A stretch of 47,926 nucleotides of DNA, taken from Escherichia phage vB_Eco_ZCEC08. The notes beneath the pieces are model-generated. The model did not search any database. It was not told where the DNA came from and saw nothing but the letters and a program-made list of their open reading frames with translations. Numbering within the stretch: position 1 is the first letter of the stretch; the number at the start of each line of letters is the position of its first letter. Below are positions 6,441 through 46,870 of the stretch, one piece after another. A program made the translations under genes and the position numbers. Location: sequence record PP213477.1. One strand, 5' to 3'.

Positions 6441-6477
6441 ATGTAGATACTATGCACCACCACTCAATCTACGTCAA
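6441..6477 (-). promoter_or_regulatory. candidate minus-strand promoter (TTGACG ... TAGTAT) with inverted ATCTAC motifs
   Basis: reverse complement reads TTGACGTAGATTGAGTGGTGGTGCATAGTATCTACAT. Confidence 0.35.
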
Positions 6478-6521
6478 TAGTCATTGTGATAGAATTAATC
6501 ATTATTTGAACTGGAGGCAGA

Positions 6522-9808: not shown

Positions 9809-9853
9809 CTTGACGTTTCTACATCATTTAGTCAATACTTGTTGACGTAGATT
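9809..9853. promoter_or_regulatory. divergent regulatory region with inverted TCTACATCA / TGACGTAGA motifs
   Basis: CTTGACGTTTCTACATCATTTAGTCAATACTTGTTGACGTAGATTG between divergent genes. Confidence 0.3.
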
Positions 9854-20139: not shown

Positions 20140-20200
20140 TTTCTACGTCACTAACTATAAACGCCACATCAATCTACGTCAACAGGAATATGCTAAAATC
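20140..20200. promoter_or_regulatory. divergent promoter region with two direct TCTACGTCA motifs and an extended -10 (TGCTAAAAT)
   Basis: GTTTCTACGTCA and TCAATCTACGTCAA about 32 bp apart; TGnTAAAAT upstream of the plus-strand genes. Confidence 0.35.
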
Positions 20201-21817: not shown

Positions 21818-22215
21818 TGCCAGCGAAATTAAGAGGCGTCCGACAGGCCGTAGAGAGAACATCGCAGATTGTGGATGAGATAATCGCCACGAAAGCTGTG
21901 CGTGCAATTAAGTCAGCGACATACATCATCCGCACCGAATCAGCCACGCTAACGCCAATTGATACATCAACGCTAATTAACAGTCAGTTTGATACCGTGG
22001 AAGTTAGCGGAACGCGAATCACTGGCAAGGTTGGCTACTCTGCAAAATATGCACTGTACGTCCACAATGCCAGCGGTAAACTTGCAGGGAAACCGCGCAG
22101 CAACGGCAACGGCACGTATTGGTCGCCGGGTGGTGAACCACAATTCCTGACCAAAGCAGCGCAACGCACAAAAGACCTTGTTGATAGCGTGATTAAGAAG
22201 GAGATGACACTCTAA
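21817..22215 (+). CDS. HK97 gp10-like head-tail joining protein
   Basis: 132 aa; TESATLTPIDTSTLINS resembles the gp10-family PxDTG.LRNS motif. Confidence 0.5.
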   Translation: MPAKLRGVRQAVERTSQIVDEIIATKAVRAIKSATYIIRTESATLTPIDTSTLINSQFDTVEVSGTRITGKVGYSAKYALYVHNASGKLAGKPRSNGNGTYWSPGGEPQFLTKAAQRTKDLVDSVIKKEMTL

Positions 22216-22589
22216 TGAATATGCTTGAACTGGTTGATGCATATCTTCAGGATGCAGGATTGTACGATGGCTGGACTTCGCAGCTGCAGTTCTGGAATGA
22301 CACCGGAGATGGAAGTGAGCAATTTATTGTTCTGCAATCCAACGGTGGCACTCAGGTTATGGATGGCCTCGGCGGTGACTTCTATTTTTCGCTGTATGTT
22401 GTTGGCAAACAAGGCCAATACAATGTTGCTGATGTTGATTCGAAGGCCAATGAGATTATCGAATACATCAAAACACACCCGATTGATTCATGCGTTAACT
22501 ACATCCAGTTGCAAGCGCCACTTGGCAGGGCAATGCTGACGGAAGAAAAAAGACCAGTGCATGAACTGCTATTGCGTGTTGTGAAATAA
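22215..22589 (+). CDS. putative tail terminator protein
   Basis: 124 aa; last gene before the terminator and tail genes; call by position. Confidence 0.4.
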   Translation: MNMLELVDAYLQDAGLYDGWTSQLQFWNDTGDGSEQFIVLQSNGGTQVMDGLGGDFYFSLYVVGKQGQYNVADVDSKANEIIEYIKTHPIDSCVNYIQLQAPLGRAMLTEEKRPVHELLLRVVK

Positions 22590-22590
22590 A

Positions 22591-22616
22591 TAAAGCCGCA
22601 TGAAGCGGCTTTTAAT
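22591..22616. terminator. bidirectional rho-independent terminator
   Basis: AGCCGC-ATGA-AGCGGCT then TTTAATTT; abuts the 3' end of the minus-strand tRNA-like gene. Confidence 0.5.
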
Positions 22617-22617
22617 T

Positions 22618-22694
22618 TGGTGGACACGGACGGATTTGAACCTTCAATCAGCCGATTATTAGTCGGTTGCTTTAACCAATTAAGCTACGCGTCC
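22618..22694 (-). tRNA. tRNA-like gene, isotype undetermined (hand fold gives anticodon AAU)
   Basis: minus strand reads GGACGCG-TA-GCTT-AATTGGTTA-AAGC-A-ACCGA-CTAATAA-TCGGC-TGATT-GAAGG-TTCAAAT-CCGTC-CGTGTCC-ACCA: 7-bp acceptor stem (one G.U), 4-bp D stem, T-loop TTCAAAT, encoded CCA; one mismatch each in anticodon and T stems. Confidence 0.5.
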
Positions 22695-23192
22695 ATAAGT
22701 GCTGGTTTAAGCATTGCCAGCGTGCTTTCTTAACATCCAGCCCCGTAACCCATACATACCCCTACATATGATTGCGATAATGCTGGATATTAAGTGTTGT
22801 GGTGGCCGGTGCTGATCTCCGGCATAAGGCGCTTATTCGGCGGCGTCGAGCTTGCTTATTCGCTTGAGCCATCCTCGTGAGTCAGCCACGTCCCACTGCG
22901 CATCAGCCTGCGCATTCACCACAACGGAAAGAGCACTGATGCGCTCACTTGGGACTCCTTAGCCATAACCCACGGGCTTCTGGTACACCAATGCTCTTAC
23001 CTGTTGTGTTCCCTGACTTATTAATCACACCTCAGGGACGCAGTGCGCCGAATTTGTTTACAAGGAATCGGAAGACCTTGCTGACTTACAGGCTATTACG
23101 CCGCCATCAGAACAACATCATCGTTTGCATTTATCTTTGTGGTCAGTTTCTAAAAAGTCCGCAAAGTCGCTCACGAAAACTATCTGAAATAC

Positions 23193-23236
23193 AATCTACA
23201 CCACAAAATAATCGCTGTCAACACCTGTGATATAAT
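23193..23236. promoter_or_regulatory. back-to-back promoters: minus TTGACA-17-TAGATT and plus extended -10 TGATATAAT
   Basis: hexamers read directly; plus promoter precedes the major tail gene; minus promoter points into the non-coding region and tRNA. Confidence 0.45.
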
Positions 23237-23272
23237 CACCACGTTAGCAGCTAACACAATTCGGAGATCGAA

Positions 23273-23992
23273 ATGGCTATTTGTGCAAATGATAAAGGCG
23301 TTCTGGTCGGTCGCATGACCCGACTGTTCCTTGCTGAAGGGTGCGGCGACGCAGTTCCGGATGCAGGCGACTGGAAGTATTTAGGCTCAACCACCAGTAA
23401 AGGCGTTGACTACTCGCCGCAGACCACTACGTCGGAAGCGGATACCGCTGGCGGCTTTGTTTCTACTCTCGTTACCAGCTCTGATATGACCATCAGTGCA
23501 GAGGTAGAAATCCGCAAGAATGACCCGAGCGATGAGTTTGGCTTCCATCGTCTTGTTGAGATTTACACCACTGAACTGAAGGTTCGCCGCCAGCCTTCCT
23601 TGTGGGTGCGTCAGGTGACTGGTGCAACTATCGTTACCGCGTATTGCAACATCACCAGCATCAGCTACGAAGGTGGCACGAACGATATCGTTACTGGTAG
23701 CCTTGAGTTTAAGGTTTACGATTCTGACAGCGTTACCGTAGAAAGCCTTGAACCTCTGGCATTCACTACCGACCTGCAATCAACTGGCACGGCCGGAAGC
23801 CCGTTAACCGTTGCTGTTGAAGGTGGCGTTACTCCTTACACTTATGTATGGCGCAAAGATGGCGCAGTTGTTGGTGGTGAGTCTGGCGCATCTCTGGCAA
23901 GCCCTACCGCTGGCGTGTATACCGTCACGGTAACTGATTCATCTACCGACCCGGAAATTATCATCAGTACGGCGTGCACGGTATCCTCATAA
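23273..23992 (+). CDS. major tail protein with C-terminal Ig-like domain
   Basis: 239 aa; position before the tail chaperone and tape measure; C-terminal Thr/Val-rich Ig-like repeat. Confidence 0.6.
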   Translation: MAICANDKGVLVGRMTRLFLAEGCGDAVPDAGDWKYLGSTTSKGVDYSPQTTTSEADTAGGFVSTLVTSSDMTISAEVEIRKNDPSDEFGFHRLVEIYTTELKVRRQPSLWVRQVTGATIVTAYCNITSISYEGGTNDIVTGSLEFKVYDSDSVTVESLEPLAFTTDLQSTGTAGSPLTVAVEGGVTPYTYVWRKDGAVVGGESGASLASPTAGVYTVTVTDSSTDPEIIISTACTVSS

Positions 23993-24025
23993 AGAAAAGC
24001 CCCGAAAGGGGCTTTGTTTTATTCT
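23992..24025. terminator. bidirectional rho-independent terminator
   Basis: AAAGCCCC-GAAA-GGGGCTTTGTTTT between convergent genes. Confidence 0.55.
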
Positions 24026-24219
24026 TGTGGTGGTTCTGGCGGATTGGCCCAGTGGGTAGCTGGAATTCCGTGACAGCAGTCCAATTCACTAACAAATATC
24101 TTGCTGCCAATATTATCGACAGCTTTACATACCGCAGTTCTAACAACACCGCGAAATGCTGTAAGAACCATCGTTCCTTCTTCTGGCATTCGCTCACTAC
24201 ACTTAATCCACTGGCTCAT
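24019..24219 (-). CDS. DUF551-like small protein
   Basis: MSQWIKCSERMPEEGTMVL... fits the W-I-x-x-x-E-R-M-P-E-x-G pattern of DUF551 phage proteins. Confidence 0.5.
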   Translation of the reverse strand: MSQWIKCSERMPEEGTMVLTAFRGVVRTAVCKAVDNIGSKIFVSELDCCHGIPATHWANPPEPPQE

Positions 24220-24359
24220 ATCACCTTGTCCTCATCAAAAATCACGCCAATAACGCGAAGTAAGTCTTTCGCCATGCGTTCCGCTTCTTCATAATCGTAA
24301 CCTGCATCAACATACAGTTCAGTGTAGAAAATCAGGTCAGCTTTTGTTTGTTCGTTCAT
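24216..24359 (-). CDS. small hypothetical protein (47 aa)
   Basis: hand-translated MNEQTKADLIFYTELYVDAGYDYEEAERMAKDLL...; ATGA overlaps at both ends. Confidence 0.3.
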   Translation of the reverse strand: MNEQTKADLIFYTELYVDAGYDYEEAERMAKDLLRVIGVIFDEDKVI

Positions 24360-24550
24360 TTCTTGTCGCCACTGTTAACTAATGCCCAAACAAGTGCCGC
24401 AACCCATCCAATGAAGCTCCATCCGACAAGAATATTCAATACACAGATTGCTGTCGTGTTTGTGTGCTTTCTTTGCAATGCCACAAATGACGGGAGAAGA
24501 TAAGCAAATATAACCAATCCAGCAAAAAGCAACAAAATAACAACATCCAT
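24356..24550 (-). CDS. small two-pass membrane protein (64 aa)
   Basis: two hydrophobic segments separated by QRKHTNT; GAGGTG upstream; first gene of the moron operon. Confidence 0.5.
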   Translation of the reverse strand: MDVVILLLFAGLVIFAYLLPSFVALQRKHTNTTAICVLNILVGWSFIGWVAALVWALVNSGDKK

Positions 24551-24585
24551 AACTCACCTCATTCATATCTCGTTTCGATGATTTG

Positions 24586-24633
24586 AATCTACATCACCAC
24601 CCCGCAGGTGTCAACACCACTGAGATGATATAA
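24586..24633. promoter_or_regulatory. back-to-back promoters: minus TTGACA-17-TAGATT and plus extended -10 TGATATAAT
   Basis: same architecture as 23193..23236; drives the minus moron operon and the plus tail chaperone gene. Confidence 0.5.
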
Positions 24634-24654
24634 TCAACATCAGTCAAATTCAGG

Positions 24655-25371
24655 ATGCAAAATATGAGCAATCGCACGCCACTAACAGAAATCGGGGAGA
24701 TGCGCATCTCGCTTTCTGACAGGAGTTTTTTCTTTAAGCCATCATTCCGCGCAATGAATGAAATCGGCACGCCAAAAGAAATCGTCGAGGTATACGCTAA
24801 GCTCAATGGCATTGATTATGTTGCGCCGCTGCAGCACGTCGAATACCTGCCGTTTGGCGCGCAGATGCAGGTTATGAAAACCATCAGCAAGCCAGTGTAT
24901 GGTCGACATGTACTGGGTGCGGCCTATATTGTCATGCAATCATGCTGTGAAGATGATGTTTCCGTGTTGATTGGTGGCTGGAAACCAACTCCACGCGGCG
25001 TGCGATATGTTCCAGGCATCATGCCAGTGAGCGACATTATTATTATTGCGCGCAACCTGATGCAGCACGGCATCATCGGTAAGTCACCACTCAAAGTGCC
25101 TGAGCGCCTGGAGGAGCAAGGCAAGAAAACCACAAACGAGTTTCATGCGTCGCAATACATCATCTCAGCACGCACGCATTTCGACATGACTCGCGATGAG
25201 GCCGAAAACCTGTCCATGACAGAGTTTCAGATGATGATTAAGAATAAATATCCAGAGCCGAAAGGGTTAACTAAAGAAGAACGTGCGGCTGAGTACGATC
25301 AGGCTAAAGCTGACCGCGAGCGCATGAAGGCGCTGGCTGAACGCAAAGCGAAAAAAGCGAGGAATACATAA
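24655..25371 (+). CDS. putative tail assembly chaperone (start may be 24664)
   Basis: 238 aa immediately upstream of tape measure with TAATG overlap; Lys/Glu-rich C-terminus; call by position. Confidence 0.4.
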   Translation: MQNMSNRTPLTEIGEMRISLSDRSFFFKPSFRAMNEIGTPKEIVEVYAKLNGIDYVAPLQHVEYLPFGAQMQVMKTISKPVYGRHVLGAAYIVMQSCCEDDVSVLIGGWKPTPRGVRYVPGIMPVSDIIIIARNLMQHGIIGKSPLKVPERLEEQGKKTTNEFHASQYIISARTHFDMTRDEAENLSMTEFQMMIKNKYPEPKGLTKEERAAEYDQAKADRERMKALAERKAKKARNT

Positions 25372-27739
25372 TGGCTGAAGAAGTCGGCGGAATTGTCTAT
25401 GAAGTCGGGATGGATGTTAAAGGTCTGAAAGCTGGCGCGACAACAGCCAATAAGACTTTAGATGACCTTGAGTCATCACTAAACAAGACTACCGGAGAAC
25501 TCAACAAGCTGGACAAAGGCGCGCGCAATGCTGGCAGCGGAATAAAGAATGCTGGCGGCGCAGCTTCAGGACTCAAGACCAGTATGTCGATGCTAGCTGG
25601 CGCAATATCCGTGTCACTGATTATCGAATGGGGCAAGCGATTCCTTGAGGTTGCCGATAACATGACGCAGCTTCAGGCAAGGATTGCTCGCCTGTCAACT
25701 GATGCGAAAACCGCGAACGAAACATTCAGCGCACTGGCAAATATCGCCTCAACCACTGGCGCAAGCCTCAGCGACACGACGAAACTGTGGGAAACATTGA
25801 CGTCATCACTGAAAGAGGCTGGCGCGACAAATGCGCAGGTTCTTAACCTTACAGATACCCTGCAAAAAATAGGTCGAATCGGCGGGTCATCAACTGAAGA
25901 AATGGCTAACGCCCTGCGTCAGTTCGGTCAGTCAATCGCTTCTGGCACAATCCGTGCAGAAGAATTTAACTCTATCCTTGAGCAGATGCCTGAACTTGCG
26001 CGCCAGATAGCGGCTGGGCTTGGCATTTCAATGGGTGAACTTCGCGCCAGAATGCTCGATGGCAAGCTGACAGCAGAAGATGCACTGAATGCCATTCAGG
26101 ACAGAACAAGCGTCGTCAATGCTGAGTTCGCAAAACTACCGCGCTCTATATCTCAGGCTACTGGAAGTCTTGAAACATCATTTGCAAAAATGATAGCAAG
26201 CATAAACGATGCAACCGGAGCCAGCTCCACTTTTGTTTCTGTTATTGATTCTATCACTTCAGCAATAAACAGACTTACTGGTCAAACTGTAAGTGCAGCA
26301 GAGGTTATTTCTGATTTGACGTCAACAGCCGAAATGTTCAGTCGCAGGGCTAGAACTTGGTCATGGGTTGGCATTGACGGATGGGCGGCACAAAATCAGG
26401 CAATAGCTGCGGTAGCAAATCAGGCTGCAACTTTGGTATCAGATATGGATGCCGTAACTAAGTCAACAGGAGAGGCAGCAAAAGCTCAGGCGCATTTGAC
26501 AGTGCCTAAAGCGGCAGAGAAAGACAAAAAAGGAAAAGGTAAAAGCGCAGAAGAGCGACAAGCTGAGTCAGTAGCTGAAAAGCTGGAGAAATTACGCCAG
26601 CAAACCATGCTCAATGCAGCATCTACCAGCGAACTATCCCGCGAGCAAGCCATCCTCAATGCGCAGCAATCGCTTGGCAAGGCAGCAACTCAGGAGCAGA
26701 TAAAACTGGCGGGGGAGTACGCTGCGAAGATTTGGGACCAGAAAAACGCACTGAAGGAGCAGGCAGAAGCTGAGAAGGAAAAGCAGCGCGTAGAAAAATC
26801 ATATCAAGGGTTGCGCGCCATTGCGTCGCCAACAACTGGCATTGATAGTGAATACCAGCAACGAATGGCTGACCTTGACGCCTACGCCGCAGCGTATCCG
26901 CAGAAAATCACGGAAATTGAACAGACTCGCGCAGCAATTGAAGCGCAATACCGCCAACAGCGAATGGACGCTATGTGGGCTGAATGGCAGCAACAAAGCC
27001 TCGGCGCGCAACTGTTCGGTACCGCTCTTGATTCAGCAATGAGTACGGCATCAAACAGCATCACCGGATTGCTGACAGGAACAATGAGCGTTCAGGATGC
27101 CATGCGCAGTCTCGGCTCTACGGTACTCAACTCTCTGGTAAATAGTTTCGTCGAGATGGGTGTGCGGTGGGTTAAATCTGCTGTTATGGGTCAGACTGCA
27201 CAGGTTGCAGCCACAGCGACAACCACAGCGGCGCAAACGGCAGGACTGGCAACCACAACAGCAGCATCCACTGCGGCGGCAGCAACCACTACGGCAGCAT
27301 GGACTCCTGCAGCAATCGTAGCATCAATCGGCTCATTCGGCGGGGCGGCTGCAATTGGGGTAGGTGCCGTTCTCGGAGCGCTGGCGATGGGCATTGCTGG
27401 CAAGCGTAAAAATGGTGGCCCTGTTAGTGCCGGAAGTATGTACGAAGTGGGCGAAAATGGCTTGCCTGAAATATTCCAGGCGTCCAACGGTCGCCAGTAT
27501 ATGATTCCCGGTAACGACGGCTCAGTTATCAGCAACAAAGACCTGACAGGCGGCAGCAGTGGTGTTGTAGTTTATAATAGCATTATCAATAACAGCTCAG
27601 CGCAGGTTAGCAGTAGCGCCAGAGATAACGGTGACGGCAGCGTGACAATTGAGACGATTGTGAGTGATATTTCGGAAAATGGCCCAATAGGGCAAGCCAT
27701 TTCAAGAAACTACAATACCAACAGGAGAGCAACCGAATA

Positions 27740-27740
<1 letters not shown>
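25371..27740 (+). CDS. tail tape measure protein
   Basis: 789 aa; long predicted helical regions; Ala/Thr-rich hydrophobic segment near C-terminus; position. Confidence 0.8.
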
Positions 27741-37771: not shown

Positions 37772-37803
37772 TACCTCACTTGTTATTGTCAGTTGAATCT
37801 ACA

Positions 37804-38229
37804 TCAATCTACATCGAAAGGCAAGCCAAAATAGAAAAGCGTGGCTTTTTTTAGTTCATCAAGACCATAAGCGATGGCAGCATAATGACCAAGCCTGCAC
37901 ATCTCTGTTAGCACTGCTGATTGATCCTTGCTCACCCTGCTTTTGCTTTTATCGCGGCGCTTTGCTTCAATCATCCCACAACTGTGATTTACCCCCGGAG
38001 TCATTATCACATTGTCGCCTATACCAGCCTTAACCCCCATCTTCTGGCGCTTCAATACAAACTGGACGCGGCTGGATGTTCCTGTTTCATTCGGGACGTG
38101 AAACCAGAGCACATCAGGGAAACGGTGTTGCATCCATGTTCCATAACCCATCTGGTCAGTCTCCTCTTTTGGGCATTCTCCTCGATAACCGCTATCAAAT
38201 ACCCATATACCGCTATCAAGCTGCTTCAC
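37804..38229 (-). CDS. VRR-NUC domain nuclease
   Basis: FHVPNETG...MGVKAGIGDNVIM...IEAKRRD...SKDQ pattern. Confidence 0.6.
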   Translation of the reverse strand: MKQLDSGIWVFDSGYRGECPKEETDQMGYGTWMQHRFPDVLWFHVPNETGTSSRVQFVLKRQKMGVKAGIGDNVIMTPGVNHSCGMIEAKRRDKSKSRVSKDQSAVLTEMCRLGHYAAIAYGLDELKKATLFYFGLPFDVD

Positions 38230-40416: not shown

Positions 40417-40446
40417 TTGATGTTTCTACGTCAGTTAGCTTATACT
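40417..40446 (+). promoter_or_regulatory. sigma70-like promoter (TTGATG - 18 nt - TATACT) with TCTAC motifs
   Basis: hexamers read directly; about 30 nt upstream of primase ATG. Confidence 0.4.
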
Positions 40447-40476
40447 CAATCTACACCAACAATCAAGGGTCAATTT

Positions 40477-44013: not shown

Positions 44014-44635
44014 AGATAAAAAATAAAATTAACGCAACACAAAACAGGTCTAACCAGCAACAATAGCTACCACACTTAATAACTGGTCAGACCACCATCC
44101 CGTATCTGATATATGTGGATGGCGCCTGTCGTTCAATTTGAACTCGATTTTTACCTAATTTACCGTATATTTATCGGTCGGTTTTTTGCATAAATAATTG
44201 ATTTATAGTATTTTACCTGTTTTACCGTAACTCTAAGGAGTATTTTCATCATTAAGAGTGGTAGTATATTAATTGGTCTAATTTTAAAGAAATCTAATAA
44301 AATCAATATATTAATATAAAAGAATAGCTTACTTACTTCTATAGTATTTACCTGGTAAAACCGGTAACTCCTCCGAAGGCCGCGTCATTACTGGATTCAT
44401 TTTTACCGCCTGTAGGTAAATACAGTAGTTTTCAATCCGTTATTGCTCTTCTAAGCTGTTGATTACCGGTACTTTATTTGGGAAACCGGCATTTACCGGT
44501 TTTTGTGGTGTGATTAATAATCGAGCAACTGGTCCTGTTTCACCAGAACCAACTAATGCGACGCCTGAAAATCATGTTGACGTAGAATCATCATTGATGT
44601 AGATTGAACTAATCGAAACAAACGAGGGTGAAGAG
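44014..44635. repeat. AT-rich non-coding region with iteron-like TTTACC(G) repeats and ACCGGT palindromes; candidate origin
   Basis: direct TTTACC copies near 44148, 44159, 44211, 44221, 44347, 44401; inverted copy near 44415; ACCGGT near 44360, 44465, 44495; no ORF of 60 aa or more. Confidence 0.35.
44577..44605 (+). promoter_or_regulatory. sigma70-like promoter TTGACG-17-TAGATT
   Basis: hexamers read directly; about 30 nt upstream of the ATG at 44636. Confidence 0.45.
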
Positions 44636-46810: not shown

Positions 46811-46870
46811 TTATCTACGTCTATGTGTTAAAATTAGCGTATGTGAGTTACTTAAAGAACACAAAAAGAC

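Follow-up and report, generated by a model that had tools for sequence, protein, structure and literature searches.

The window, that is the whole stretch of 47,926 nucleotides of DNA that was analysed, stems from Escherichia phage vB_Eco_ZCEC08 (PP213477.1). The genome is ~96% identical to Escherichia phage HC6, and the relatives include Sf11 (genus Cedarrivervirus). The genome appears to be that of a virulent siphophage with a rightward tail-gene operon, which seems to be interrupted by two islands, termed A and B. In the following, A(-) and B(-) denote the leftward and A(+) and B(+) the rightward predicted promoters of the two modules, A and B, at the islands. The genes and terminators of the locus are:

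22215-22589, plus strand: tail terminator gene, left neighbour of island A
22592..22612, minus strand: terminator that closes island A on the left; less strong on the plus strand and conserved behind every island type
22618..22694, minus strand: tRNA-Ile gene, anticodon AAT (ARAGORN; Rfam tRNA, 62 bits), part 2 of the island A cargo
22695..23185, minus strand: structured non-coding RNA, part 1 of the island A cargo
23273..23992, plus strand: major tail protein gene (PHROG 853, E = 1.3e-85)
23996..24015, both strands: two-way intrinsic terminator (8-bp stem, 5 GC pairs, flagged on both strands)
24219-24019, minus strand: DUF551 protein gene (Pfam PF04448, E = 4e-11), island B cargo
24359-24216, minus strand: gene for a 47-aa protein, island B cargo
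24550-24356, minus strand: Imm-type superinfection immunity gene (Pfam PF14373, E = 2.8e-18), in island B (24019..24550)
24655..25371, plus strand: DUF6246 protein gene (Pfam PF19759, E = 8e-73) in the position of a tail-assembly gene, first gene behind B(+)
25371-27740, plus strand: tape measure gene, next after the DUF6246 gene

Each island is bracketed by a predicted promoter and a terminator of its own, A(-) and 22612-22592 in the case of island A and B(-) and 24015-23996 in the case of island B. The terminator at 23996..24015 is predicted to end the transcript of the major tail protein gene on the plus strand and that of island B on the minus strand. The GC content of island B is 42.5% compared to 49-52% in the flanking tail genes (major tail protein gene 52.4%); island A, with 48.4%, is near the genome mean of 46.5%. 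Imm-type immunity genes are classed as moron/host-takeover genes in PHROGs. A first-pass annotation of the locus had proposed a tRNA transcript which opposes the tail genes; the tRNA gene is indeed present, but the transcript would consist mostly of the structured RNA of ~490 nt. An open reading frame on the plus strand (22949-23230) has counterparts in phage Bas80 that carry the annotation of hypothetical proteins. It is most likely spurious, since it lies over the structured RNA, and the lineage differences in the RNA under it include insertions and deletions.

The locus was compared with that of 34 relatives of the phage. Module A is intact in 32 of them, and so is module B in 32/34. The cargo, by contrast, is exchanged: to the left of AATCTA, island A contains at least four unrelated cargo types with a length of 371-849 nt and with tRNA genes for Ile, Met, Arg and Met, Arg and Ser or none at all, and the length of island B ranges from 437 to 1370 nt. 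The leftward homology of module A ends at 23193, exactly at the edge of the -10 element. The promoter does not travel with the cargo, since it stays in place when the cargo is swapped and is absent from the RNA loci of IME11, P1, T765 and an O26 prophage; the same RNA cargo is found in N4-like phages, phage P1, Ackermannviridae and a lambdoid prophage, in each case without the A(-) promoter. That two slots of variable cargo have modules A and B as their fixed edges goes beyond the points made in the first-pass annotation.

The two look-alike stretches which had been reported to start at 23193 and 24586 were found again with the same coordinates and sequences. Modules A (23193-23241) and B (24586-24639) have three blocks in common, in which 34/36 positions are identical:

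Block 1: AATCTACACCAC at 23193-23204 (A) and AATCTACATCAC at 24586-24597 (B), 11/12 identical
Block 2: TGTCAACACC at 23216-23225 (A) and 24609-24618 (B), 10/10 identical
Block 3: TGATATAATCA(C/A)CA at 23228-23241 (A) and 24626-24639 (B), 13/14 identical

The 11-nt spacers between blocks 1 and 2 are dissimilar in A and B, and blocks 2 and 3 are separated by 2 nt in A compared to 7 nt in B. A search with the gapped pattern of blocks 1 and 2 (up to 3 mismatches) matched only A and B, with 0 matches expected from 100 shuffles, and exact matches to TGATATAATCA were confined to the same two sites. A local alignment of the two intergenic regions that contain A and B gave a score of 20.5, the fourth highest among 406 intergenic pairs (median 9.5). 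One might argue that two short, AT-rich intergenic segments resemble each other by chance, the more so as promoter-like hexamers are common (15 expected per 12 kb), but this is refuted by the result of the shuffles, by the rank of the pair and by the conservation of the blocks across the relatives. Two of the pairs with a higher score, 20113-20229/40402-40476 and 6421-6523/20113-20229, are other promoter regions which have a common 13-mer, described below, and the third pair has a terminator hairpin and a degenerate copy of the 13-mer in common. Since three intergenic pairs outscore A and B, their resemblance is a family trait and not unique to the pair. Every common block is a promoter element or a portion of the genome-wide motif; A and B are members of two promoter families and no special pair. 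The sequence GGTGTCAACACC in module B was considered as a palindromic operator and rejected, because the symmetry is broken in A and in many relatives.

Both modules read as divergent promoter pairs, as had been claimed, and both are conserved as such in the relatives. The leftward elements are:

23198-23193, minus strand: A(-) -10 element TAGATT, last six bases of the 13-mer copy TGTGGTGTAGATT (23193..23205)
23216..23221, minus strand: A(-) -35 element TTGACA, 17-bp spacer, predicted +1 at ~A23185, 10/12 consensus matches
24591-24586, minus strand: B(-) -10 element TAGATT, within the 13-mer copy GGTGATGTAGATT (24586..24598), predicted +1 at ~A24579
24609..24614, minus strand: B(-) -35 element TTGACA, 17-bp spacer

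TTGACA at 23221-23216 and 24614-24609 matches the -35 consensus in 6/6 positions; TAGATT matches the -10 consensus in only 4/6 positions, with T-12, A-11 and T-7 retained. A promoter scan from 18 to 30 kb yielded 21 promoter-like matches overall, which is no clear enrichment over the 15.4 +/- 4.6 expected, and the two minus-strand TTGACA-17-TAGATT sites were the top two matches. The -10 element of B(-) ends 35 nt ahead of the start codon of the Imm gene (24550), which has the ribosome-binding site GAGGTGA, and the predicted +1 of A(-) (23185) precedes the start of the cross-phage homology of the cargo RNA (23183) by 2-3 nt. B(-) has the -10 element and the initial transcribed sequence in common with the promoter of a rightward small-gene region at 44576-44605. 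Judged from their sequence, A(-) and B(-) are probably sigma-70-type promoters and would be expected to fire.

The rightward elements of the two modules are:

23228..23236, plus strand: A(+) extended -10 element TGATATAAT, no usable -35, predicted +1 at ~G23243, 30 nt before the start codon at 23273
23243..23255, plus strand: hairpin GTTAGCAGCTAAC, with which the mRNA of the major tail protein is predicted to begin, invariant in 33 relatives
24626-24634, plus strand: B(+) extended -10 element TGATATAAT, predicted +1 at ~24641-24642
24632-24644, plus strand: forward variant of the 13-mer, AATCAACATCAGT, fused to the B(+) extended -10 element (24626..24644), 12.8 bits

The distance from the extended -10 element to the start codon of the tail gene is 36 nt in A and 20-29 nt in B. 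A -35 element is missing in A, and B has only GTGTCA, a 4/6 match. Extended -10 (TGnTATAAT) sigma-70 promoters such as galP1 do not need a functional -35. At both A and B, TGATATAAT is like these promoters in 9/9 positions of the extended -10 consensus; what differs is that one phage employs the type systematically for its structural and lysis operons. TGnTAnAAT without a -35 is found at the head of at least nine rightward operons, 20-45 nt ahead of the first gene. This systematic use hints at class-specific control. A(+) and B(+) were not listed by the promoter scan because the scan requires a -35. The hairpin GTTAGCAGCTAAC is likely an mRNA stabiliser.

Could TGATATAAT instead be an AT-rich, UP-like enhancer of the leftward promoter, with the tail genes being transcribed by read-through from an upstream late promoter? 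The missing -35 in A and the 4/6 match in B, the absence of both sites from the list of the -35-requiring scan and the distance of ~45-55 nt by which the element precedes the leftward start site, a location expected of UP elements, would agree with such a role. Nevertheless, we regard it as quite improbable. The full 9/9 extended -10 element is invariant among the relatives together with the downstream leader, and TGATATAAT is kept in two relatives (L041 and L042) which have the rightward half of module A and lack its leftward TTGACA-17-TAGATT. Furthermore, 6, 11 or 0 bp separate the leftward -35 from the rightward extended -10, depending on the version, unlike what is expected of an UP element, the analogous TGnTAnAAT sites stand ahead of other rightward operons, and terminators are located upstream of both TGATATAAT sites. 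The variable gap and the occurrence of the rightward half alone indicate that the two halves are independent of each other. The leftward TTGACA-17-TAGATT sites of the first-pass annotation were confirmed, but the overlap with the rightward extended -10 elements that it had described was not, as the elements lie side by side, with 6 bp between them in A and 11 bp in B. The predicted start sites face outward and are 58-63 bp apart, so that the footprints of the polymerases should overlap; overlap at A and B is expected to be confined to these footprints and not to involve the promoter elements.

The AATCTAC block of A and B is a copy of a 13-mer, nTTGAYGTAGATT, of which ~16 strong copies were found in 10 intergenic junctions of the genome; its consensus had 10 matches compared to 1.1 expected, and an enrichment calculated with a position weight matrix is circular since the matrix was seeded from the same sites. 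The copies are mostly located ahead of replication and accessory genes, and ~10 strong copies end 21-49 nt ahead of a start codon with a ribosome-binding site. The 13-mer is also present at the corresponding junctions in phages Bas80 and HC6. The genes behind 13-mer promoters (replication, host-takeover and accessory genes) would constitute an early class. At 44576-44605, two copies 17 nt apart make up a textbook TTGACG-17-TAGATT promoter. Other copies are placed over the -35 element (20183 and 6478), over the +1 (20152 and 40435) or, in forward orientation, across the -10/+1 of rightward promoters (1466, 9856 and 24632), and the copies at 1448-1483 are antisense to the terminase gene. Such placements, in which the 13-mer cannot be a -10 element, suit an operator at least as well as a pure promoter element.

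It is possible, if doubtful, that the 13-mer is mainly an operator for a phage or host DNA-binding regulator that switches many promoters and that the use of TAGATT as -10 element is secondary or incidental, a reading which is compatible with divergent promoters at A and B. It would account for a 13-mer that coincides, in either orientation, with the -35, the -10 or the +1, depending on the predicted promoter, for pairs spaced 10, 17, 23, 25 and 31 bp, convergent and divergent arrangements among them, and for the two copies in module B, one over the -10 of each promoter. The copies in the terminase gene, which have no leftward gene to serve, and the conservation at the same junctions in Bas80 and HC6 point in the same direction. 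Yet the 13-mer is non-palindromic, no candidate regulator was found and no transcription factor is contained in the annotations of HC6 and Bas80. Moreover, the TAGATT end lies at the promoter-like distance from a correctly oriented start codon at the ~10 strong copies mentioned above, and the pair at 44576-44605 has exactly the spacing of a promoter. Sites for IHF, CRP, LexA and alternative sigma factors were rejected as an identity of the 13-mer, because their consensus sequences do not fit. A text search of the literature for the 13-mer retrieved only unrelated primer sequences, and papers on phages swi2 and Sf11 contained nothing on promoters.

The first-pass annotation had further taken the modules for near-identical duplicates. 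This did not hold, as the sequences of the spacers are unrelated, the leftward and rightward halves are shifted by 5 bp between A and B and relatives have a version with a gap of 0 bp. In module B, the columns that vary among the relatives cluster in the spacer between -10 and -35, AATCTACA, GGTGTCAACA and TGATATAATCAACATCAGT are unvarying, and the B(+) region 24626..24644 comprises 19 consecutive invariant positions; around A, the relatives are at least 90% identical and, therefore, conservation of the spacer of A is of little informative value. The last bases of block 2 (TGTCAACACC) in B vary among the relatives (ACATC, ACACT), which makes part of the 10/10 identity specific to this genome. 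A and B could still be diverged paralogous copies of one ancestral regulatory cassette, perhaps duplicated with the insertion of an island, and their likeness would then be due to descent. In favour of this, the GGTGTTGACA-type -35 context and TGATATAATCAMCA are confined to A and B in this genome, and B(+) resembles the promoter region 1426-1501 over ~55 nt, suggesting that promoter cassettes get copied. Common descent is unlikely in the light of the unrelated 11-nt spacers and the offset of the halves, of the genome-specific part of the identity in block 2 and of the fact that the remaining likeness corresponds exactly to the functional elements. In each of the 34 relatives, the two modules already exist as separate, fixed entities, hence any duplication must be old; A and B are not a recent duplication.

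We consider it likely that A and B are compact two-way promoter regions at the right edges of leftward accessory islands within the rightward tail operon. The elements, their spacing and conservation, the promoter families, the swapping of the cargo and the gene identities are observed, and we infer that these promoters fire, when they do so and that their footprints exclude each other. The leftward TTGACA-17-TAGATT promoters, with the 13-mer as -10 region, would transcribe the accessory cargo early: A(-) the tag-bearing structured RNA and the tRNA, B(-) the Imm-type superinfection immunity gene and the two small genes. These transcripts would stop at the hairpin terminators at the left edges of the islands. 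Since the terminators also face rightward transcription, each island has a predicted rightward extended -10 promoter on its far side; through A(+), transcription of the major tail protein gene would start anew, and through B(+) that of the assembly and tape measure genes. With such a restart, the major tail protein gene becomes a promoter-to-terminator unit of its own, from A(+) to 23996-24015. The polymerase footprints of the opposed promoters, with start sites ~58 bp (A) and ~63 bp (B) apart, would exclude each other, and the two directions may in this way be co-regulated or compete, with early transcription to the left and late transcription to the right.

Several known systems are related to this arrangement. 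Morons, reportedly described in 2000 by Juhala and co-workers (Hendrix) for lambdoid and other tailed phages, are similar in that cargo lies between conserved tail genes and is bounded by its own promoter on one side and by a hairpin terminator on the opposite side, that it is present, absent or different among close relatives and that, as in island B, its GC content is below that of its neighbours. Unlike morons, the islands run against the late operon, each is accompanied by a promoter that would restart the tail genes downstream, the island promoter is part of the backbone and not of the cargo, and one island has RNA genes only. Back-to-back divergent promoters such as lambda PR/PRM and tetA/tetR, which were reportedly reviewed by Beck and Warren in 1988, also face outward with footprints that are expected to overlap; at A and B, however, no operator or regulator is known, the promoters are of two classes (-35/-10 and extended -10) and the spacing is variable. 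In the promoter-early stem-loop (PeSL) cassettes of T4-type phages, said to have been described by Arbiol and colleagues in 2010, a conserved early-type promoter and a stem-loop likewise bracket hypervariable cargo and could provide short homologies for module swapping. Here, in contrast, the common sequence is ~13-36 nt with no long repeated unit, the flanking tail genes are conserved enough for exchange and no circular or mobile intermediate is implied. Two-way promoters at accessory islands are ordinary phage design and not conceptually new. They would provide a readable transcription map of this phage group with two promoter classes, 13-mer-marked -35/-10 promoters for accessory and replication genes and extended -10 promoters for structural and lysis genes, and make A and B fixed docking edges for swappable cargo within the tail operon. 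This is of use for annotation, for phage engineering (safe insertion slots with a ready promoter and terminator) and for the choice of sites for transcript mapping.

The structured RNA behind A(-) contains a tag frame at 23128-23096 (minus strand), GCA AAC GAT GAT GTT GTT CTG ATG GCG GCG TAA, which reads ANDDVVLMAA*. The stop codon of this frame is part of a hairpin, and the RNA further comprises another hairpin, a pseudoknot at ~23047-23011, a module with a long stem (23008-22917) and additional hairpins. The RNA is like tmRNA (SsrA; RF00023, RF04321) in that the ten-codon tag starts with GCA AAC GAT after AUAAAU and ends with Ala-stop (ANDDVVLMAA compared to ANDENYALAA in E. coli), that the stop codon is located in a hairpin loop, as in helix 5, and that an H-type pseudoknot follows downstream. 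Unlike in tmRNA, no tRNA-like domain was found, neither an acceptor stem with G3:U70 nor a T-arm followed by CCA; moreover, the RNA is phage-encoded beside tRNA genes and has other structured modules behind. Six tag variants were found, each of 10 codons (ANDDVVLMAA, ANDNTFLAVA, ANDDLMMVAA, ANDNVFLAVA, ANDDLMLMAA and ANDEQFLAVA); the last Ala codon is GCG, GCU or GCC, and the alternative frame is variable in length. The hairpin of the stop codon and the second hairpin are backed by compensatory changes, and the stems of the pseudoknot co-vary between lineages, as read from an alignment (A2) that is locally out of register and carries no formal score. Minimum-free-energy folding of the first 187 nt was no better than that of shuffled sequences (z = -0.21), so the support for the structure comes solely from the compensatory changes.

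With ARAGORN, neither the window nor 5 other loci nor 29 islands yielded a tmRNA, and inspection by eye revealed no T-loop or acceptor pairing of a tRNA-like domain. At the curated thresholds of Rfam, the tRNA was the only match in the whole window, and the cargo RNA is absent from Rfam. In permissive mode, the RNA matched RF04321 with 26-33 bits (threshold 47), RF00023 with 16 (47), alpha_tmRNA with 20-21 bits (threshold 50) and beta_tmRNA with 13-17 (threshold 84), and such weak matches to tmRNA models recurred in every lineage examined. The RNA, for which there are 643 phage hits, is present in at least six unrelated groups of enterobacterial phages and prophages, namely this siphophage group, N4-like phages, Ackermannviridae, Mooglevirus, P1 and lambdoid prophages. 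An exact 14-mer scan of IMG/VR for the start of the tag gave mostly chance matches, only 8 of the 120 combining the tag with the right context. An attachment-site remnant of ssrA was considered and rejected, because the similarity is to the middle of tmRNA and not to its 3' end and because strictly virulent phages are among the carriers. Of bacteriophage tmRNA sequences, the tmRNA database paper reports 79 unique ones, along with a form in phage DS6A that has no tag; it describes no form without a tRNA-like domain, and the supplementary lists consulted name no enterobacterial phage. A literature search on tmRNA-like RNA in phages retrieved nothing relevant.

The tag-bearing RNA that A(-) would drive is previously undescribed. 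We tentatively suggest that A(-) expresses, from the onset of infection, a tmRNA-like RNA with tag and pseudoknot and without the tRNA-like part, which has spread horizontally with tRNA genes and acts on the ribosome rescue of the host. It might act as a decoy to which tmRNA-binding factors are drawn, or serve as a template through which tagging is switched to a degradation tag chosen by the phage. If it does act on trans-translation, this would be a new type of phage interference with ribosome rescue and protein degradation; phage P1 and members of the BASEL collection lend themselves to a direct test. The predicted 5' start sequence of the cargo RNA is GAUAGUUUUCG.

The genome is that of a virulent siphophage with ~ 96% identity to Escherichia phage HC6 in the 2.4-kb region around modules A and B; close relatives include phages Bas80, swi2, Akira, KFS-SE2, IME207 and Sf11 (genus Cedarrivervirus).

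Genes and elements around modules A and B
22215-22589, plus strand, tail terminator gene
22592-22612, minus strand, hairpin terminator, weaker on the plus strand
22618-22694, minus strand, tRNA-Ile, anticodon AAT
22695-23185, minus strand, ~ 490 nt without credible open reading frame
23193-23241, both strands, module A
23273-23992, plus strand, major tail protein gene
23996-24015, both strands, two-way terminator (flagged on both strands)
24019-24550, minus strand, three small genes (Imm-type superinfection immunity, 47-aa protein, DUF551 protein)
24586-24644, both strands, module B
24655-25371, plus strand, DUF6246 gene
25371-27740, plus strand, tape measure gene

The first-pass annotation had described A and B as near-identical, duplicated divergent promoters. 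The likeness was borne out by pairwise alignment: block 1, AATCTACA(C/T)CAC (11/12 identical), block 2, TGTCAACACC (10/10), and block 3, TGATATAATCA(C/A)CA (13/14), are common to both, with an 11-nt spacer between blocks 1 and 2 that is unrelated in A and B, and 2 nt in A versus 7 nt in B between blocks 2 and 3. The gapped block pattern gave two matches where none was expected, and the local alignment score of A and B was the fourth among 406 intergenic pairs, above most of them. By sequence, both also read as divergent promoter pairs: the minus strands carry TTGACA-17-TAGATT (predicted promoters A(-) and B(-)), which are the two best promoter-scan matches in 12 kb, and the plus strands carry a full extended -10, TGATATAAT; a rightward -35 is absent from A and matches at 4/6 positions in B.

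A and B are not a duplicated pair. Some other intergenic pairs are more alike than A and B; B(-) and the promoter at 44576-44605 have the same -10 and first transcribed bases, and region 1426-1501 is similar to the rightward promoter B(+). In a whole-window scan, block 1 proved to be one instance of a 13-mer that recurs, nTTGAYGTAGATT on the strand ending in TAGATT and AATCTACRTCAAn on the opposite strand. With up to two mismatches, its consensus occurs 10 times in the whole window versus 1.1 expected; strong copies number ~ 16 in 10 intergenic junctions. In ~ 10 strong copies the TAGATT end lies, correctly oriented, 21–49 nt upstream of a start codon with a ribosome-binding site, and a pair of copies separated by 17 nt at 44576-44605 creates TTGACG-17-TAGATT. 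Bas80, with 19 sites, and HC6, with 18, have the 13-mer at the same junctions. The genes downstream of it serve replication and recombination, or are the small genes in the 44.6-kb region, those of a Lar-like cluster, Imm or RNA genes; we infer that the 13-mer-headed genes form an early class. The second family, TGnTAnAAT without a -35, sits 20–45 nt ahead of at least nine rightward structural and lysis operons.

Sites of the two promoter families
13-mer junctions: 1448-1483, 6466-6478, 9816-9853, 20140-20183, A, B, 37796-37818, 40423-40460, 44576-44605, 46812-46824
TGnTAnAAT, plus strand: 2883, 6487, 12814, 16558, 20191, 23228, 24626, 31542, 46826

The similarity of A and B is confirmed, and the first-pass interpretation is right in part: the reading as divergent promoter pairs holds, but A and B are neither duplicated nor a special pair; they are two members of two promoter families, and co-regulation is a possibility. 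As a class, such phage architecture is known: accessory islands that have a promoter and terminator of their own, promoters placed back to back, and promoters of the extended -10 type. Worth follow-up are the genome-wide 13-mer and, above all, a tmRNA-like cargo RNA.

The 13-mer may also be an operator, which is compatible with the promoter reading: copies also lie over -35 and +1 positions, forward-orientation copies cover the rightward -10 elements at 1466, 9856 and 24632, and the copies at 1448-1483 are antisense to the terminase gene, pointing into its 3' end. The 13-mer may act in promoters, as an operator, or in both roles. The 13-mers are often paired, 10–31 bp apart and in varying orientation.

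Conservation was analysed in 34 relatives from IMG/VR. Module A is intact in 32 of them; from AATCTA rightwards to the start codon of the major tail protein the sequence is near-invariant, and directly left of AATCTA at least four unrelated cargo types are found. The length of island A, the leftward cargo next to module A, is 371–849 nt, and its tRNA content differs between relatives (tRNA-Ile, tRNA-Met, Arg + Met, Arg + Ser or none). Two relatives (L041 and L042) are without the leftward half of A but retain TGTGATATAATCA; upstream of their major tail protein gene lie ~ 1.0–1.5 kb of protein genes, behind a differently placed 13-mer copy (GTAGATA-type) and not behind a TTGACA-17-TAGATT promoter. 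Module B is likewise intact in 32/34, next to an island B of 437–1370 nt. Its variable columns are concentrated within the -10/-35 spacer, as would be expected if it were a promoter. In two relatives a variant B has TGTCAA directly abutting TGATATAAT. Since the gap between leftward and rightward halves varies (0, 6 or 11 bp), the halves are independent units.

In the most probable model, each island would be a leftward unit that starts at a backbone promoter and stops at a hairpin terminator. The terminators also face the rightward tail operon and, therefore, a promoter that points rightwards from each island's far edge would restart tail transcription, thus making the major tail protein gene a self-contained unit with its own promoter and terminator. 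The predicted start sites of opposite directions are separated by ~ 58 bp in module A and by 63 bp in module B, and polymerase footprints are therefore expected to overlap; mutual exclusion of the opposed promoters and an early-to-late hand-over are plausible. The major tail protein mRNA is predicted to open with a perfect hairpin, GTTAGCAGCTAAC (23243-23255, plus strand), which does not vary in 33 relatives and would suit the tail protein of greatest abundance; it could be a 5' stabiliser of this transcript.

The 490-nt cargo of A(-) is not junk. Of 5426 complete E. coli genomes, 1326 matched all or part of it, as did 643 phage records, the matching DNA being almost always unannotated and adjoining tRNA genes. 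At least six phage or prophage lineages, unrelated to one another, carry this RNA, here called tag RNA, beside tRNA genes.

Carriers of the tag RNA include
N4-like phages, e.g. IME11 (L006)
Ackermannviridae T765 (L007) and SenALZ1 (L008)
Mooglevirus Sf15 (L046)
Phage P1 (L045), between dmt and the tRNA-Asn and tRNA-Thr genes
Lambdoid prophage of E. coli O26 (L010), between the Q antiterminator and holin genes

Homology across lineages begins at GATAGTTTTCG (23183), 2–3 nt past the predicted +1 of A(-), and the A(-) sequence was absent from all other carriers examined. AUAAAU is followed by GCA AAC GAU GAU GUU GUU CUG AUG GCG GCG UAA, encoding ANDDVVLMAA; the tag of E. coli tmRNA is ANDENYALAA. 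Six variants occur across lineages (ANDDVVLMAA, ANDNTFLAVA, ANDDLMMVAA, ANDNVFLAVA, ANDDLMLMAA and ANDEQFLAVA), each exactly 10 codons long, with three different codons for the last Ala. In the consensus fold the stop codon lies in a hairpin loop with compensatory changes, resembling helix 5 of tmRNA; a second hairpin also co-varies, as do, judged by eye, both stems of a downstream H-type pseudoknot. Folding energy alone was unremarkable. Every lineage gave weak matches to tmRNA models, but against each of the Rfam tmRNA models the score was under threshold. Unlike in tmRNA, a tRNA-like domain was not detectable (ARAGORN; window, other loci and islands of relatives). No description of the tag RNA was found in the searchable literature.

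Open reading frames on the plus strand of the RNA island (window 22949-23230; 1715-1816 and 1853-2218 of the Bas80 locus L002, hypothetical proteins there) lie over the structured RNA as well as promoter A, and are unlikely to be genes.

The anticodon AAT of the adjoining tRNA-Ile (22618-22694, minus strand) is unusual; relatives have tRNA-Met(CAT) at this position. Because the same tRNA-Ile(AAT) adjoins the tag RNA in IME11 (L006 83-158), RNA and tRNA are suggested to travel together. In T765 and SenALZ1, a tRNA-like element with acceptor stem and T-arm, without anticodon arm (e.g. GGCGAAG...GGTTCGATTCC...CTTCGCCA), precedes the tag by ~ 170–260 nt on the RNA strand; ARAGORN gave no call for it, and at position 3:70 it has C:G or U:U rather than G:U.

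Further modules, including a long co-varying stem, follow downstream of the tag part. A repeated module (window 23008-22917, minus strand; P1 locus L045, ~ 1660-2900; locus L021) has a variable 40–60-nt insert enclosed by a long stem, ACAACAGGUAAGAGCA / UGCUCUUUCCGUUGUG, and is followed by a AAUGCGCAGGCUGAUGCGC hairpin and a GCCGGAGAUCAGCACCGG hairpin; 'CACAAC' seems to mark the module limits. P1 has ~ 5 tandem copies with many compensatory variants in the stem; one of these copies gave a weak match to STnc100, a small RNA of prophages (33.9 bits, threshold 47).
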